Assembly: GCF_029504745.1 (NCBI RefSeq)
Contig: NZ_JAQFIQ010000027.1
Coordinates: forward strand, 1 to 32,000
Length of the DNA stretch: 32,000 nt
Direction of reading: 5' to 3'
Origin: Breznakia sp. PF5-3
GTDB lineage: Bacteria > Bacillota_I > Bacilli_A > Erysipelotrichales > Erysipelotrichaceae
Below the pieces are notes generated by a model that worked only from the letters and a program-made list of their open reading frames with translations, did no database searches and was not told where the DNA came from. Shown one piece after another: positions 24,552-29,740 of the stretch. Position numbers and translations under genes: made by a program. Position 1 is the stretch's first letter, and each line of letters begins with the position of its first letter.

Positions 24552-24580
24552 TGAACCTTTTTGATGTAAAAAGTGTCTAA
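24552..24580 (+). promoter_or_regulatory. ECF-type promoter motif, copy 1 (TGAAC-N17-TGTCTAA)
   Basis: TGAAC at 24552-24556 and GTCTAA at 24575-24580, with exactly 18 nt between GAAC and GTC. It lies 54 nt upstream of the sigma-region-4 fragment. The downstream block TTAATGAAGG is also shared with copies 2 and 3. Confidence 0.6.
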
Positions 24581-24633: not shown

Positions 24634-24981
24634 ATGGAAATCGGATCAGATGTTATTCTAGCAGTAAAAACAGAAATCGAAAATATGCCAGTAAAATATA
24701 AATTTATTGCATTGCTTTGGTATTTTGAAGAATTTACTGTTGTAGACATTTCAAATATTTTGAATATTCCAGAAGAAATCGTGGAAATTAGAATTGATAA
24801 AGTAGAAAGTATGATTCGTCCTACAATTTTGGTAGAAGGAATGACTTCGGCAAGAAAGTATTCAAAACATTTTCCTGTTGTGGTTTCAAAGGCGTTTGAT
24901 TTGATTATTAAGAGTTATCAGATGCCTGCTGAAACAGAGAGTAGAATATATGTAAACATTTTAAATACATGTCTTTCATAA
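24634..24981 (+). pseudogene. truncated paralogue of the sigma-fusion genes, keeping only sigma region 4 plus the juxtamembrane linker
   Basis: The 115-aa ORF aligns to residues of about 125-225 of the 438-aa protein (VKTEIENMP..., YFEEFT..., IPEE..., ARKYSKHFPVVVSKAFDLII vs PAKYFSFAFTPIMFSAFQQII). DNA identity is visible (AAAACAGAAATCGAAAATATGCC vs AAAACCGAAATTGAAAATATGCC). It lacks region 2, the TM span and the ectodomain. It keeps an RBS (GGAAGGAAG), a promoter copy and a terminator. Confidence 0.65.
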
Positions 24982-25010
24982 AATGGAAAAAATATATATA
25001 GAAAAAAGTA

Positions 25011-25047
25011 GCAGATAGAACAACGTGTTTTATTTGCTTTTTATTTT
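25011..25047 (+). terminator. rho-independent terminator after the sigma fragment
   Basis: 12-bp stem GCAGATAGAACA / TGTTTTATTTGC (two G-U pairs), loop ACG, followed by TTTTTATTTT. Confidence 0.7.
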
Positions 25048-25059
25048 GAAAATGAAAAT

Positions 25060-25086
25060 TATGCTATTTAAGTGAAAAATAGCATA
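25060..25086. repeat. perfect 10-bp inverted repeat upstream of promoter copy 2
   Basis: TATGCTATTT (25060-25069) and AAATAGCATA (25077-25086) with a 7-nt spacer. No T-run follows. It lies about 100 nt upstream of the -35 of copy 2. Confidence 0.5.
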
Positions 25087-25188
25087 GAATATTACACAAT
25101 TGTAAATACTTATGGTATGCTTTTAGTATGGAATTATTCTAATCAAAATTAGCAAATAGAAGATAAATGTTTATTTTTTTATAAAAAA

Positions 25189-25217
25189 TGAACGAAAAGA
25201 ATAATGAAATTGTCTAA
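25189..25217 (+). promoter_or_regulatory. ECF-type promoter motif, copy 2 (TGAAC-N17-TGTCTAA)
   Basis: TGAAC at 25189-25193 and GTCTAA at 25212-25217, with the same 18-nt GAAC-to-GTC spacing. The AAATGAACGAAA block is identical to copy 3. It lies 75 nt upstream of the 438-aa sigma-fusion ATG. Confidence 0.65.
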
Positions 25218-25291
25218 ATTAAGAGGAAATTTGAATTTATTAAGGAAATATGCTAATTTTGTTTTGAATAATAAAAAAAAGGGAGCACATA

Positions 25292-26608
25292 ATGGGTAAA
25301 AAAAGTATTGATGTGAAATATGTAAAACGATTGAAACAAGGCGATCCTGAAGCTTTTGAAGAAATCTTTCGTTTTTATAAAGACTCTATATATTATTTTT
25401 CCTTAACCTTTTTGAAGAATCGAGCAGATGCGGAAGAAATTGTTCAAGAAACCTTTATAACAGCAATGAAAAATATTGGTTCTTTGGAAAAACCGGCATC
25501 ATTTCATTCTTGGCTTCACAAAATAGCGTATAATAAATCAATGACCCTCTACAAAAAGAATAGCAAGAATGTACAACTAGATAGTGATTTTGATCTAGAA
25601 AACATGATTGAAGGAGAGGAAGGTCCAGCTGGTATGTTATCGCGTAATGAACTAATTTCAACTATAAAAACCGAAATTGAAAATATGCCTAATACATTAG
25701 TTCAGGTCGCACAATTGCGTTATTTTGAGGATTTTACAACCAGAGAGATTTCTGAAATAATGGATATTCCTGAAGGAACGGTTAAAACAAGGTTAAATAA
25801 AGTTAGAAAGATAATTCAACCAAAGCTTGATACAAAAGGGTTTTCTCCTGCAAAATATTTTTCATTTGCGTTTACACCAATAATGTTTAGTGCTTTCCAA
25901 CAAATTATTGATTCACATACTTTGTCAAATGCAGTAGCAAATAAGATGTTTGAAAATATGTCAGTAGCAATTGGTGGAGCGGCAGGATTAGCTGCAAGTG
26001 CAGGCGCAGCAGCAGGTTCTGCAGGTGCAGGTGCATCAAATGCAAGCAATGGATTGCTTACAGCAGCCAAGGTTGCAGTGGCAGCTGTTGCTGGAGGGTC
26101 TGGTGTCTATGGAGTTTATAATGTAGTGCAATCAACAGGGCCTAATGTAGAGCAAATTTCATATTATAATGAAATAACGAATAAAGATATTGAGGTTGAA
26201 GTAATATTAAGTAAAAAAGAAAATGAAGAAGATATAAAAATATTGTATAATGGTAATGATGTAACATTTACTGCTGAAGACAAGACATTGACATTTGTAG
26301 CGAAAGCAAATGGTGAATATGTAGTAGAAGTTGGCGGAACACAAAATATATTTACAATTTCCAACATTGATAAACAATCACCGGAGTTGATATCTGTCGA
26401 AAAGAGTGGAAATAGTGTGGTATTTTCATATAATGATGATGTTTCAGGAATTGATTTTGAAAAATCATATATTACTGTAAGTACAGGGGAAAAAATAAGC
26501 TTACCAACTAATAACGTAATCAATGGTGATTATAGTGGTAGTATAAAAGTAAACTTATATGATAAAGCGGGGAATGTTGCAGAATATGAAGTAGATTTAG
26601 ATGCATAA
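25292..26608 (+). CDS. ECF-type sigma-70 family factor fused to a Gly/Ala-rich predicted membrane span and a beta-rich C-terminal (Ig-like?) domain
   Basis: N-terminal sigma region 2 (FEEIFRFYKDSIYYFSLTFLKNRADAEEIVQETF...WLHKIAYN). Region 4 HTH (LRYFEDFTTREISEIMDIPEGTVKTRLNKVRK). Then KYFSFAFTPIMFSAF, an Ala/Gly tract, the hydrophobic LLTAAKVAVAAVAGGSGVYGVYNVV, and about 170 aa of alternating beta-strand-like sequence. Strong RBS GGGAGC. Confidence 0.85.
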   Translation: MGKKSIDVKYVKRLKQGDPEAFEEIFRFYKDSIYYFSLTFLKNRADAEEIVQETFITAMKNIGSLEKPASFHSWLHKIAYNKSMTLYKKNSKNVQLDSDFDLENMIEGEEGPAGMLSRNELISTIKTEIENMPNTLVQVAQLRYFEDFTTREISEIMDIPEGTVKTRLNKVRKIIQPKLDTKGFSPAKYFSFAFTPIMFSAFQQIIDSHTLSNAVANKMFENMSVAIGGAAGLAASAGAAAGSAGAGASNASNGLLTAAKVAVAAVAGGSGVYGVYNVVQSTGPNVEQISYYNEITNKDIEVEVILSKKENEEDIKILYNGNDVTFTAEDKTLTFVAKANGEYVVEVGGTQNIFTISNIDKQSPELISVEKSGNSVVFSYNDDVSGIDFEKSYITVSTGEKISLPTNNVINGDYSGSIKVNLYDKAGNVAEYEVDLDA

Positions 26609-26625
26609 TATAAATGGAGATGAAT

Positions 26626-27966
26626 ATGAAAAAAATAAGAAAAATAAAAATATTCTTTCTAATTGCAATAATGTTATTTGGAACCATTTTGGCGAGTAGC
26701 ATTTTTCGTGCATCCATAAGTGCAGATGATGAAACTAAAGTACATGTAAATGTCTATAGTAATTTATATTATAATAACAATGGTAATTATGAGGATATTC
26801 CAGTAGAAGGATTACCTTATGAAGCAGATGTAGTATTAGAAATACATGCTTCTACAAAGAAAGAATATGAAACGGTAATTGATTATAAAGATAAAGTAGG
26901 AACAGTAGTATATTCATATTATGATGGAGTGTTAAAAATTGATGATCGCAATGCTACACAAGAAGAATATGAAGCATTTATTGGCAATGGGATGTCAGAT
27001 GTACTTTCAAGTAAGGAAAGAATATATACTTTACATTTGAAATCAACAGGTGAAGATGAAGGGTTGATAACTTGTGGTATTAATTTTCTTTTTAGACATC
27101 CAAGTGGAACAATTAAATATTTGTATACATTGAAGCATAAAGGTTTATTTCATGGCGAAACATATGCTGTAAATTTTTATGATTATGATGGTTCTGTAAT
27201 AAAAAGTGAACGTGTAAAACCAGGAACAGCTGTAGAAGTTCCAACGGTTAAAAGAGAAGGATATAATTTTCTTGGTTTCAATACGCTTGAAAATGGAACA
27301 GGTGAATATTATAAAGGTCAAGAAATAGTTGAAGATATGTCATTTTATGCTATTTATGAAAAAAAGATATATCGGGTAAATTATTATGTGGATGATGAAT
27401 TATATACAACACGAGAAGTTGCTCATGGTGAAGATGCAGAAAATATTAAATTAAAAGACACAGCGAGTCGTAAATTTGTTGGATGGGACAAGAGCTTAAA
27501 TAATGTTACTAGTGATTATGATGTACATGCAGTATTTAAAACAATTAAACCTATACCAAGTCCGCCAAAAGATGCAGAAAAACCAAGTACAGATACTTCT
27601 ATAAAAGAAAAGGAAGTTATTGCGAAGCCAAGTGAGGCAGTAACCCCAAAAGCAGAAATAGAACAAAAAGAACCATCAAAAAAAGATGAAAAAAAGGCAG
27701 CGAAAGTAAAAGCTAAAATTAAAAAAACAAGTTCTATTGAAGGAAATGATACATTAGAAGCAGATAATAAAGCAGCTATAATAAATAATGATGATAATGC
27801 AGAGGTGATTGATTCAGAAGAGAAAGTATCAGCTTCTGTGGCAAGCAAAGAGGTGGGTTCATCAAAGGATGACACATTAATGAAACTATTGCCGTTTGCT
27901 GTTTCAACATTAAGCATGTTGGTATTGTTATTATTGACGGTAAAAAGTAAGATTTTTAAAAGATAA
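26626..27966 (+). CDS. secreted or cell-surface protein with Listeria-Bacteroides (InlB B / Flg_new) repeats and a C-terminal hydrophobic anchor
   Basis: Signal peptide MKKIRKIKIFFLIAIMLFGTILASS. Two repeats of the YxVxF...G...GYxFxGW...Y type (YAVNFYDYDGS...REGYNFLGF...FYAIYE and YRVNYYVDDE...RKFVGWD...VHAVFK). A Pro/Lys/Glu-rich spacer follows. The terminal LLPFAVSTLSMLVLLLLTV is followed by KSKIFKR. GGAG lies before the ATG at 26626. It starts 17 nt after the sigma-fusion stop. Confidence 0.8.
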   Translation: MKKIRKIKIFFLIAIMLFGTILASSIFRASISADDETKVHVNVYSNLYYNNNGNYEDIPVEGLPYEADVVLEIHASTKKEYETVIDYKDKVGTVVYSYYDGVLKIDDRNATQEEYEAFIGNGMSDVLSSKERIYTLHLKSTGEDEGLITCGINFLFRHPSGTIKYLYTLKHKGLFHGETYAVNFYDYDGSVIKSERVKPGTAVEVPTVKREGYNFLGFNTLENGTGEYYKGQEIVEDMSFYAIYEKKIYRVNYYVDDELYTTREVAHGEDAENIKLKDTASRKFVGWDKSLNNVTSDYDVHAVFKTIKPIPSPPKDAEKPSTDTSIKEKEVIAKPSEAVTPKAEIEQKEPSKKDEKKAAKVKAKIKKTSSIEGNDTLEADNKAAIINNDDNAEVIDSEEKVSASVASKEVGSSKDDTLMKLLPFAVSTLSMLVLLLLTVKSKIFKR

Positions 27967-27988
27967 GTAAAAAAACTTATCTTTTTTT
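27961..27988 (+). terminator. rho-independent terminator after the surface-protein gene
   Basis: Stem AGATAAGT (27961-27968) / ACTTATCT (27975-27982) with an A6 loop, then a T7 run. It overlaps the stop codon. Confidence 0.7.
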
Positions 27989-27997
27989 AAAAATAAA

Positions 27998-28026
27998 TGA
28001 ACGAAATGCTATTTTTACTTGTCTAA
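27998..28026 (+). promoter_or_regulatory. ECF-type promoter motif, copy 3 (TGAAC-N17-TGTCTAA), with no adjacent gene
   Basis: TGAAC at 27998-28002 and GTCTAA at 28021-28026, with identical spacing. The next credible CDS starts about 400 nt downstream, beyond a terminator. Confidence 0.6.
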
Positions 28027-28320
28027 ATAATGAGGTGGATAGAGAAGCTAGATGTATAAGAAACTTGATGCAATGAAAGAAGTAATAAATTTATGACCTA
28101 ATATATTATGACCAAATATACTATACAACTTCTGGAGGGGCGTTATATATCGTAGATAAATAACTTGTATTATAATAATCAAAATTTTTAGACATTACAC
28201 TCACATAATTGTTCATCGGAGGGGGATGAACCTAAGCGTATGGGAAGATAGGATTTTAGATAATAATTGAAATCTTATACATCTACAAGCATTGTTTAAG
28301 GCAGATTATTGAATTGAAAA

Positions 28321-28356
28321 GGAAAAGGTTCGTTTAACGAACTTTTTCCTTTTTAT
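28321..28356 (+). terminator. strong rho-independent terminator inside the copy-3 promoter to sigma-2 interval
   Basis: 12-bp stem GGAAAAGGTTCG / CGAACTTTTTCC (one G-U pair), loop TTTAA, followed by TTTTTAT. Confidence 0.75.
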
Positions 28357-28370
28357 GCGAGGTGTTTTAA

Positions 28371-28399
28371 TTGTATTTTTATAGCGAGTGTGGTATTAC
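28371..28399 (+). promoter_or_regulatory. candidate sigma-A promoter proximal to the second sigma-fusion gene
   Basis: TTGTAT (28371-28376), 17-nt spacer ending in TGg, TATTAC (28394-28399). It lies 25 nt upstream of the ATG at 28425. Confidence 0.35.
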
Positions 28400-28424
28400 T
28401 ATTGTGGGGAAAGCAAGGAGTAGT

Positions 28425-29702
28425 ATGAAGAGGCGGCAGATTGATACAAAGTATATAAAGCAGCTTAAGGAAGGCGATGAGTCTGCTTTTAACAAGGTTT
28501 TTGATTTTTACAAGGATTCAATCTATTTTTTCGCATTGTCATATGTGAAAAATAGAGCGGATGCAGAGGAAGTAGTTCAAGAAGTATTTATTCAAGTATT
28601 AAAAAGTATACATACACTAAAGAAGCTTGATTCTTTTGGATCGTGGTTGCATAAAATTGCTTATTATATGGCGATTAGTATTCAGCGCTCAAAAGGAAAT
28701 CAACATATCCAATTAAATGAAGAATACGATATAGAGAATATGGTAGTGGAGAAAGAAGGACCAGACAAGATGTTATCGAAGAATGAAATGGTGGAAAGGG
28801 TGCGTGAGGAGATCGAGAAGATGCCCCCCAAACTGACTAGGATAGCACAATTACGGTATTTTGAGGATTATTCAACAAGAGAAATTGCAGAAATTGTTGA
28901 TATTCCAGAAGGAACGGTAAAATCAAGATTAAATAAAATAAGAAGAATGATGAAGCCGATTTTAGAGACAAATGGAATATCACCAAGCAAATATTTCTCA
29001 TTTGCACTTACACCACTTATTGTGGAGGCAATGCAGTTGATAATGAATAAAAATAGTATGCCACAGGATGTAGGGGTTGGAATAAAATCACATGTATTAG
29101 CTAATGCTGGAAGCATATGGCAAGAGTTAGCGAGCAATGAAAGTGTTCGTCAGGGGTTATCAAATATGACCAAAGCAGGATTAGCTTTAGCTACAGGTGG
29201 AGCTGGACTAATAGGACTCAATGTTTTAAATGAACAACAAGGGATGCATATTGAAAAGGTGAATATACCAACTGAAATTTCTAAATATCCAATTGATGTG
29301 GAAATCCAAGTAGATAAAAACATTAATGATGAACATGTGGAAGTTGCCCATGAAAATGAAAACATCCACTTTGATGTGGAGAATGATAGACTCATTTTTG
29401 AAGCCAAAGAAGATGGTGATTATACAATTCAAGTAGATAATGATAAAATGATTATTCATGTAGAGAATGATGGAAGGAAACCACCTATATTTGTAGAAGT
29501 AGAACAAACAGAAGGTGGAATTCAATTGAATGTAGTAAAAGGCGAACGAATTTTGAATTATGATGATTCTTATATTATCTATCAAGGAGAGCAATATTCT
29601 TTTGATGAGCATGGTTTTATAGAAGGTGAGTTTGAAGGCGATATTCAGATTTATATTGTTGAAGAGGATGGACCAACAACCCAAATTCACCAACAAATTT
29701 AA
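28425..29702 (+). CDS. second ECF-type sigma factor fused to a predicted membrane span and a beta-rich C-terminal domain (paralogue of 25292..26608)
   Basis: AAGGAG at 28415-28420 precedes the ATG at 28425. Region 2 (FNKVFDFYKDSIYFFALSYVKNRADAEEVVQEVF...WLHKIAYY). Region 4 (LRYFEDYSTREIAEIVDIPEGTVKSRLNKIRR). The conserved KYFSFALTPLIV, the hydrophobic AGLALATGGAGLIGLNVL, and then a beta-rich acidic C-terminal domain alignable with the paralogue. Confidence 0.85.
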   Translation: MKRRQIDTKYIKQLKEGDESAFNKVFDFYKDSIYFFALSYVKNRADAEEVVQEVFIQVLKSIHTLKKLDSFGSWLHKIAYYMAISIQRSKGNQHIQLNEEYDIENMVVEKEGPDKMLSKNEMVERVREEIEKMPPKLTRIAQLRYFEDYSTREIAEIVDIPEGTVKSRLNKIRRMMKPILETNGISPSKYFSFALTPLIVEAMQLIMNKNSMPQDVGVGIKSHVLANAGSIWQELASNESVRQGLSNMTKAGLALATGGAGLIGLNVLNEQQGMHIEKVNIPTEISKYPIDVEIQVDKNINDEHVEVAHENENIHFDVENDRLIFEAKEDGDYTIQVDNDKMIIHVENDGRKPPIFVEVEQTEGGIQLNVVKGERILNYDDSYIIYQGEQYSFDEHGFIEGEFEGDIQIYIVEEDGPTTQIHQQI

Positions 29703-29714
29703 TATTAAAAAAAG

Positions 29715-29740
29715 GCAATTACTAGATGGTAATTGCTTTT
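29715..29740. terminator. bidirectional terminator between convergent sigma-fusion 2 and rarA
   Basis: 8-bp stem GCAATTAC (29715-29722) / GTAATTGC (29729-29736), flanked by an A-run upstream and a T-run downstream. Confidence 0.7.

Follow-up and report, generated by a model that had tools for sequence, protein, structure and literature searches.

The window analyzed here is a stretch of 32,000 nucleotides of chromosomal, low-GC (~31%) DNA from Breznakia, of the family Erysipelotrichaceae, described as an insect-gut bacterium. Within this window, two paralogous genes, sigma1 (positions 25292-26608, + strand) and sigma2 (28425-29702, +), encode proteins of 438 and 425 amino acids with the same architecture, in which an extracytoplasmic function (ECF) sigma factor continues in one polypeptide into a linker, a predicted membrane span and a predicted ectodomain of tandem immunoglobulin (Ig)-like domains. 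A partial protein of Breznakia sp. OttesenSCG-928-G09 matches sigma1 at 100% identity. An earlier note, made from the sequence alone, had described both open reading frames (ORFs) on the + strand as membrane-tethered sigma factors; both ORFs exist, and the strings quoted there were found in them (KYFSFAFTP / KYFSFALTP, LLTAAKVAVAAVAGGSGVYGVY, AGLALATGGAGLIGLNVL, LTFVAKANGEYVVEV / LIFEAKEDGDYTIQV and IPEGTVK(T/S)RLNK). The start assigned there to sigma2 also holds: the ORF list opens this gene at a TTG codon (28371, giving 443 amino acids), and the true start is the ATG at 28425, as established by alignment to the paralogue and to 17 homologues and by an AAGGAG box just upstream. What the earlier note overlooked are three further elements of the locus, namely a conserved partner gene, a sigma-4-only paralogue and a promoter-driven non-coding leader.

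Architecture, conservation and topology of the sigma fusions

Both proteins carry a complete region 2 and region 4, as claimed in the earlier note, with Sigma70_r2 and Sigma70_r4_2 matches above the Pfam cutoff and scores of 91.3 and 101.5 bits against TIGR02937 (sigma70-ECF, NCBIfam; cutoff 42.9). With regions 2 and 4 present and regions 1.1 and 3 absent, they are sigma factors of the ECF type (group 4). In sigma1, region 2 covers residues 27-91 (25370-25564, +; PF04542, 44.7 bits against a cutoff of 24) and region 4 covers residues ~119-180 (25646-25831, +; PF08281 and PF04545; helices 114-181 in the AlphaFold model), including the recognition helix IPEGTVKTRLNKVR; the gap between the two regions in the model is ~25 residues. 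The corresponding parts of sigma2 are residues 29-85 (region 2), 125-176 (region 4) and ~264-425 (ectodomain). The two proteins share 38% identity over their full length (E = 1e-115), and this identity falls along the chain, from 54% in sigma-2 and 60% in sigma-4 to 35% in the post-sigma helices, 25% in the first Ig-like domain and 18% in the second.

For both sigma factors, the best specific NCBIfam models are of the SigW type, with scores far under the equivalog cutoffs: on PRK09641 (cutoff 209) and TIGR02948 (cutoff 243), sigma1 reached 119.6 and 106.7 and sigma2 reached 115.6 and 102.8, respectively. The full-length AlphaFold model (mean predicted local distance difference test, pLDDT, of 71.5) has well-formed sigma-2 and sigma-4 helices, and the top structural matches of its sigma part are SigW bound to RsiW (5wur/5wuq), at 32% identity. 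The modeled layout of sigma-2 and sigma-4 fits best the anti-sigma-bound arrangements of SigW/RsiW, CnrH/CnrY and RpoE/NepR (target-normalized template modeling scores of 0.68-0.71), and deviates from polymerase-bound sigma forms by a root-mean-square deviation of ~26 Å.

The absence of a separate anti-sigma gene and of a zf-HC2 motif, already remarked on in the earlier note, was confirmed, as a Pfam search found no match to the zf-HC2, RskA or FecR families in or beside the sigma genes and both proteins contain zero cysteines. The gene that lies between sigma1 and sigma2 opens directly with a signal peptide, and therefore its product is without a cytoplasmic anti-sigma domain.

Downstream of region 4, sigma1 contains a group of family-conserved post-sigma helices (residues 186-237, KYFSFAFTPIMFSAFQQII...; 25847-26002, +), modeled as helices 186-189, 194-208, 213-228 and 231-237 with pLDDT values of ~60-75, which we regard, as a hypothesis, as a candidate in-cis inhibitory or juxtamembrane module. 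These run into a Gly/Ala-rich spacer (residues 223-253) placed ahead of the predicted span; in the homologue alignment, the spacer between sigma and span is of low complexity and variable length. The ectodomain of sigma1 (residues 276-438, ~163 amino acids; 26117-26605, +) is predicted to form two tandem Ig-like beta-sandwiches. When its last 154 residues were modeled alone (17 sequences), AlphaFold returned a pLDDT of 96.4 and 14 strands arranged in two seven-stranded sandwiches, so that the beta-rich C-terminal domain proposed before is now seen as a confident fold. Foldseek matched it to NCAM, Dscam, the IPT domains of c-MET, Fc receptors, intimin and the surface protein GhpA, with E-values of 1e-4 to 1e-3; these are generic tandem Ig ectodomains among which no single specific relative is prominent, and nearly all the structural matches are extracellular or cell-surface proteins. 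Pfam matches on the ectodomain were to Big_13 and Big_3_2, both sub-threshold only.

The fusion is widely conserved. An exhaustive phmmer search with the ectodomain alone over 1.84 billion cluster representatives (clusters at 50% identity) retrieved 111 proteins, nearly all of them sigma fusions of 410-465 amino acids with this domain at the C-terminus. When 84 full-length representatives were scanned, Sigma70_r4_2 was present in every one and Sigma70_r2 in 83. A word-index search with sigma1 likewise returned 19 full-length-type homologues (365-446 amino acids), and the 17 chosen for alignment (416-446 amino acids) have the layout of sigma1; at least one full-length relative among the matches listed lies in L007, a Coprobacillaceae metagenome-assembled genome (contig scan). 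The ratio of nonsynonymous to synonymous substitution rates (dN/dS) of the whole sigma1 gene against two orthologues is 0.15-0.26, and gene order is common to the window and four related loci (L004, L005, L087 and L088).

Membrane topology was judged from hydropathy, using 19-residue Kyte-Doolittle means and a crude Hessa-scale sum. In the 84 representatives, one hydrophobic segment dominates; it lies 155-190 residues ahead of the C-terminus and has a median Kyte-Doolittle mean of 1.98. This segment reaches at least 1.6 in 67 of them, with maximum values up to 3.4, and a second segment of at least 1.6 occurs in only two. Lysines and arginines among the 15 flanking residues average 2.0 N-terminal to the segment and 0.9 C-terminal to it. 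In addition, three stand-alone proteins (P0104, P0121 and P0148) are built of a short tail followed by a strongly hydrophobic N-terminal signal-anchor and a sigma1-type ectodomain. Taken together, hydropathy with its charge bias, the signal-anchored stand-alone copies and the extracellular type of the fold support, for the family, a single span with the N-terminus inside and the C-terminus outside (N-in/C-out). A two-span topology for the family, in which the first span would be either the KYFSF helix or the Gly/Ala tract, was rejected on account of the rarity of a second segment (2/84) and of the fact that sigma2 is without the Gly/Ala tract.

In sigma1 the predicted span corresponds to residues ~254-275 (GLLTAAKVAVAAVAGGSGVYGV; 26051-26116, +; Kyte-Doolittle mean 1.48) and in sigma2 to residues 251-269 (AGLALATGGAGLIGLNVLN; 29175-29231, +; mean 1.33). 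Small, helix-weakening residues (Gly, Ser and Ala) abound in the span. The single span and outside domain proposed in the earlier note are thus strongly backed by the family signal, but the spans of sigma1 and sigma2 are themselves marginally hydrophobic, and for these two proteins the N-in/C-out topology is likely rather than certain.

Promoter motif and conserved companions of the sigma genes

The motif TGAAC-N17-TGTCTAA is found in exactly three copies in the 32 kb, all of them at the sigma locus; with one mismatch allowed, ~0.29 matches are expected by chance, and none of 100 shuffles reached three. ECF promoters of Bacillus are of the same "AAC ... GTC/CGT" style. One copy, an exact pattern match (TGAACC-N-GTGTCTAA; 24552-24580, +), is a predicted ECF-type promoter upstream of the sigma-4-only gene; another (TGAACGAA-N-TTGTCTAAAT; 25189-25217, +) lies upstream of sigma1, which points to putative autoregulation; and the third, again an exact match (27998-28026, +), lies just downstream of the partner gene. 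All three recur in related metagenomic loci: the subtype of the first (TGAACCTTTT...GTGTCT(A/T)) is also located upstream of the orthologues of the sigma-4-only gene in L004, L005, L087, L088 and L089, the sigma1-type motif precedes the orthologue of sigma1 in L004 and L088, and the third copy follows the partner gene in L004, L005, L087 and L088.

The motif or a variant of it also precedes genes for surface proteins at related loci. In L005 the motif itself is found upstream of a gene encoding a 724 amino acid InlK_D3-type surface protein. A TGAAC-N17-CGTC variant lies upstream of both the sigma gene and the gene of a 4841 amino acid surface protein in L003, and in L091 an AGAAC-N17-CGTCATA variant precedes both a sigma-containing operon and a surface-protein operon. 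As motif evidence, this distribution supports autoregulation of the sigma genes and control of surface-protein genes. The suggestion in the earlier note that the paralogues share a promoter specificity and respond to different inputs agrees with the common motif and with the falling identity along the chain, and it is probable that the two proteins read the same promoters and differ in what their ectodomains sense.

The partner gene (26614-27966, +; Pfam PF09479) begins 6 nt past the sigma1 stop codon and is predicted to be co-transcribed with sigma1. It encodes a 450 amino acid protein with a signal peptide, a conserved N-terminal domain, Flg_new (Listeria-Bacteroides) repeats, a C-terminal membrane anchor and a basic tail. 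In L001, L002, L003, L004, L005, L007, L087 and L088, the sigma gene is followed immediately by an orthologue of the partner gene, behind which genes for large surface proteins are often found. The partner was rejected as a classic anti-sigma factor, given its signal peptide at the start and a cytoplasmic part consisting only of the short basic tail. Its ending, "(L/I)(L/V)PF(A/I)(V/I)S" followed by a hydrophobic span and a basic tail, is found in the window, L001, L003, L004, L005 and L007, and looks like a conserved sorting or anchoring signal other than LPXTG.

Upstream of sigma1, the sigma-4-only gene (24634-24981, +) encodes a 115 amino acid protein that comprises region 4 and two post-sigma helices, without region 2, membrane span or ectodomain. 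NCBIfam sigma models match it by their region-4 end only (E = 1e-8), and it aligns to residues ~117-243 of sigma1 at 34% identity. Its recognition helix is altered, with an invariant IPEEIVEIRIDKVES where the sigma factors have IPEGTVKTRLNKVR. Nine homologues of 98 (partial) to 117 amino acids were found, and the dN/dS of ~0.10 against L004 and L005 indicates purifying selection; in L089 and L090 no fused sigma gene adjoins the sigma-4-only gene. The possibility that this ORF is a decaying pseudogene remnant was discarded in view of its nine homologues of conserved length, its dN/dS and its own conserved promoter, and the sequence comparisons identify it as a functional gene. Its product may be a decoy, a feedback inhibitor or a polymerase-flap binder. 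Partial sigma paralogues kept separate in an ECF circuit offer an analogy: PhyR combines sigma-2-like and sigma-4-like parts with a receiver domain, and in SigO-RsoA, RsoA supplies region 2. Unlike both, the Breznakia protein has region 4 and post-sigma helices only.

The third copy of the promoter motif precedes a non-coding stretch of ~320 nt (28031-28355, +), delimited from alignments, in which related loci have no conserved ORF. It contains a conserved box, TGGAGGGGCG(G/T)TAT (28133-28147), also found in L004, L005 and L088, and ends in a terminator hairpin (28321-28349; 12-bp core, with a fold extending to ~19 bp) and T-run (to 28355) located before sigma2. L005 and L088 contain both promoter and box without a sigma2 after them. 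We propose this element as a candidate sigma-dependent small RNA or regulatory leader. It was not assigned to a known Rfam family, as the only match was ohsC, sub-threshold at 32.6 bits against a gathering score of 50, and a consensus fold of five leaders gave one weak hairpin with almost no covariation.

Three further observations were made in passing. A relaxed TGAAC-N16-TGTCTAA match inside the leader on the opposite strand (28189-28214, -) is aimed at the partner gene and could have arisen by chance. Between the leader terminator and the start of sigma2 there is a potential extended -10 promoter, TGGTATTAC (~28395-28403). Finally, in L001, L003, L006 and L091, many start codons are preceded at 5-8 nt by a G-rich ribosome-binding site region, (A/G)GAGGGCG(A/G), which occurs before sigma and surface-protein genes and resembles the conserved leader box.

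Two further terminator-like features delimit the genes of the locus: a hairpin downstream of the sigma-4-only gene (25010-25038, +) and a bidirectional terminator between sigma2 and the convergent gene of an MgsA-type AAA+ ATPase (29711-29740, unstranded), a synteny also present in L004. Besides this ATPase, the flanking genes are of an ordinary housekeeping kind and encode thymidylate kinase, a DNA polymerase III delta-type subunit, FtsW, a P-type ATPase, two two-component systems, a binding-protein-dependent (phosphate-type) ABC transporter with PhoU, a radical-SAM enzyme, 3-dehydroquinate dehydratase and MntP. It should be noted that in the public OttesenSCG-928-G09 assembly one contig ends within the sigma-4-only gene (P0072) and another begins within sigma1 (P0001). 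This break (~24930-25650 of the window) may reflect the paralogous sigma-4 sequences; positions 24665-24689 of the sigma-4-only gene and 25665-25689 of sigma1 are 92% identical.

Comparison with known sigma factor systems

Proteins that combine a sigma factor with a membrane span and an extracytoplasmic domain form an established category (PMC5411451, PMC8999054, PMC5826349). In IutY of Pseudomonas putida, a member of the FecI-like group ECF243, the sigma factor is released by the consecutive action of the proteases Prc and RseP (PMC5411451, PMC8999054), and release by regulated proteolysis has been proposed for ECF48, ECF52 (SCO4117 of Streptomyces coelicolor) and ECF53 (PMC8999054, PMC5826349). 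The high novelty that the earlier note attached to a tethered sigma factor is not supported, since IutY and ECF48/52/53 predate it, and the family described here is an uncharacterized Firmicute form of an established class rather than a new principle.

IutY resembles the predicted layout of sigma1 and sigma2 in being a single chain with a cytoplasmic ECF sigma, one span, an extracytoplasmic domain and no separate anti-sigma gene. It differs in having a FecR-type anti-sigma/periplasmic domain, a signal from a TonB-dependent outer-membrane receptor and a Gram-negative host, whereas sigma1 and sigma2 have a tandem Ig ectodomain, a host of the Gram-positive-lineage Erysipelotrichaceae and a SigW-like rather than FecI-like sigma domain; on their extension, the FecR domain (PF04773) gave no match at E-values up to 10. 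Members of ECF52, ECF48 and ECF53 share with the predicted layout of the Breznakia proteins an ECF sigma with a long C-terminal extension, one or two spans and an extracellular sensory domain, but they are actinobacterial and carry a zinc-finger (ZAS-like) anti-sigma domain, to which ECF52 adds a proline-rich region and a carbohydrate-binding domain. The HxxxCxxC domain of the ZAS type is absent from sigma1 and sigma2, which have neither a cysteine nor a zf-HC2 match. SigW of Bacillus subtilis is the nearest sigma domain by both profile and structure; its regulator RsiW, however, is the product of a separate gene and has a zinc-binding anti-sigma domain.

The same layout is found in a set of ECF sigma factors from Clostridia (P0020-P0043), in which the sigma part is followed by a hydrophobic "G-x-(K/R)-L-(Y/H)...P" helix, an Ala/Gly-rich spacer, a lysine, an Ala/Gly/Val-rich span and a variable outside domain. 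These proteins are longer (526-764 amino acids) and have other ectodomains, such as leucine-rich repeat (LRR), BspA-LRR and CAP domains, and only their sigma part can be aligned (27-33% identity over 38-56% of the query). Such fusions with other ectodomains are common in Clostridia, and our literature search found no paper characterizing any of them, nor anything relevant on membrane-tethered or fused sigma factors in Firmicutes or for Breznakia. The main text of the ECF classification describes no Firmicute group with a single-span extension (Casas-Pastor et al. 2021).

Sigma1 and sigma2 are therefore not IutY, ECF52 or SigW, because they have no FecR domain, no zinc finger or cysteine, and scores under the SigW cutoffs. 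By analogy, the family probably works like IutY and ECF52.

Mechanistic interpretation and alternatives

The best explanation, in which we place moderate confidence and which builds on analogy with the characterized systems, is that each protein acts as a one-polypeptide transmembrane device in which a membrane-held sigma factor is freed by regulated proteolysis. The predicted layout comprises a cytoplasmic ECF sigma (~residues 1-180), the post-sigma helices, the flexible spacer, one span and ~163 residues outside. At rest, the sigma would be inactive and held at the membrane, possibly clamped in addition by the post-sigma helices. An extracellular event would act on the Ig-like ectodomain, maybe involving the Flg_new membrane protein, and would lead to site-1 trimming followed by an intramembrane cut by a RasP/RseP-type site-2 protease. 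The freed sigma would then join RNA polymerase and read the TGAAC-N17-TGTCTAA promoters, with its own operon, the sigma-4-only paralogue and the non-coding leader as outputs. The output is probably cell-surface or adhesin remodeling, since the same or a similar motif precedes large surface-protein genes in relatives.

Proteolytic release is proposed because it occurs in IutY (PMC5411451) and is the model for ECF48, ECF52 and ECF53 (PMC8999054). The compact arrangement of the modeled sigma, which is of the anti-sigma-bound kind, hints at a held state. Site-2 proteases such as RseP and RasP prefer helix-destabilized substrates, a preference that the Gly/Ser/Ala-rich span fits. As for site-1, the related locus L091 (214-6311) contains DUF1307, a stand-alone signal-anchored tandem Ig ectodomain, a Peptidase_S26, a 444 amino acid fused sigma and surface-protein genes. 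RsiV undergoes site-1 cleavage by signal peptidase, and the Peptidase_S26 of L091, being of the signal-peptidase type, recalls this case and is a possible lead to the site-1 protease.

Several points weigh against regulated release as described. The spans in the window are weak: in addition to their low Kyte-Doolittle means (1.48 and 1.33), their Hessa-scale sum is ~+3 kcal/mol (+2.9 for sigma2; family median +0.7), and in sigma1 the stretch has a pLDDT <50 with no helix modeled. AlphaFold often yields compact ECF sigma factors anyway. In-cis inhibition by the post-sigma helices is a hypothesis, and these helices matched no anti-sigma family (Pfam, E up to 10) and no PDB sequence. Within the 32-kb window we found neither a gene for a site-1 or site-2 protease nor a surface-protein target, and autoregulation of sigma2 is uncertain because a strong terminator separates the third promoter from this gene. 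Finally, the long, flexible Gly/Ala spacer suits a working tether equally well as a cleavable one.

This last point leads to the main rival explanation, which we regard as unlikely, namely that the sigma works while still anchored in the membrane, in the manner of ToxR, CadC and TcpP. The spacer would then be a leash for recruiting core RNA polymerase to the promoters of genes encoding secreted or membrane proteins, which would be kept near the membrane by coupled translation and insertion, and the ectodomain would exert control through oligomerization or partner binding rather than cleavage. The low complexity and variable length of the spacer (well over 100 residues in the Clostridial relatives), the lack of a recognizable anti-sigma domain and the surface or membrane nature of the putative targets are all consistent with tethered action. 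To our knowledge, however, no sigma factor acts while tethered; the span is Gly/Ser-rich like the substrates of site-2 proteases, and the model sigma is compact and in an anti-sigma-bound-like conformation. Moreover, IutY, the only characterized fused sigma, requires proteolytic release (PMC5411451).

A more far-reaching proposal is that the locus forms an undescribed self-contained circuit, with a membrane-spanning sigma controlled from outside by the Flg_new protein and from inside by the sigma-4-only protein, which would be expressed from the cognate promoter and serve as decoy or feedback element, a sigma-dependent non-coding RNA as output and, in its boldest form, tethered initiation; we consider it quite unlikely that the whole of this circuit applies.

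We judge it improbable that the C-terminus is cytoplasmic, at least in sigma1 and sigma2, with the Gly/Ala-rich stretch serving as a flexible linker only and the Ig-like domains regulating the sigma directly, as the soluble extensions of ECF41 and ECF42 do. The weak hydrophobicity of the segments and the low-pLDDT stretch that is not a helix in the model, both given above, would agree with such an arrangement. Against it, the homologous positions are clearly hydrophobic in most relatives (at least 1.6 in 67/84, up to 3.4), the same ectodomain is also found behind a bona fide signal-anchor, its fold matches nearly exclusively extracellular or cell-surface Ig-like tandems, and the co-conserved partner is a secreted, membrane-anchored protein. 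Lastly, the breaks of public assembly contigs within the sigma-4-only gene and sigma1 (P0072 and P0001, partial) could be taken to mean that a frameshift or misassembly fused two genes, one for a sigma factor and the other for an anti-sigma factor or a surface protein. Such an artifact is already refuted by the conservation data, since fusion and length are alike in two paralogues and at least 84 independent cluster representatives (the homologues are not consistently split, which the earlier note had named as a refuting case), gene order matches in L004, L005, L087 and L088, and the dN/dS of 0.15-0.26 extends across the whole of sigma1.

The characterized members of this class come from proteobacteria (IutY) or actinobacteria (ECF52), and the proteins described here add to the few one-component sigma factors a well-defined, conserved Firmicute family of at least 84 clusters at 50% identity, so far found in Breznakia and in Coprobacillaceae-type gut bacteria. 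The sigma-4-only paralogue is a separate lead, possibly to a new kind of sigma modulator. The locus is compact; its candidate promoter is clear, its extracellular partner is conserved, and the genes for very large surface proteins in relatives are likely targets. It therefore offers a tractable system for studying how gut Erysipelotrichia switch on adhesins and other surface proteins, and one that allows testing whether a fused sigma factor must be cut free to function.

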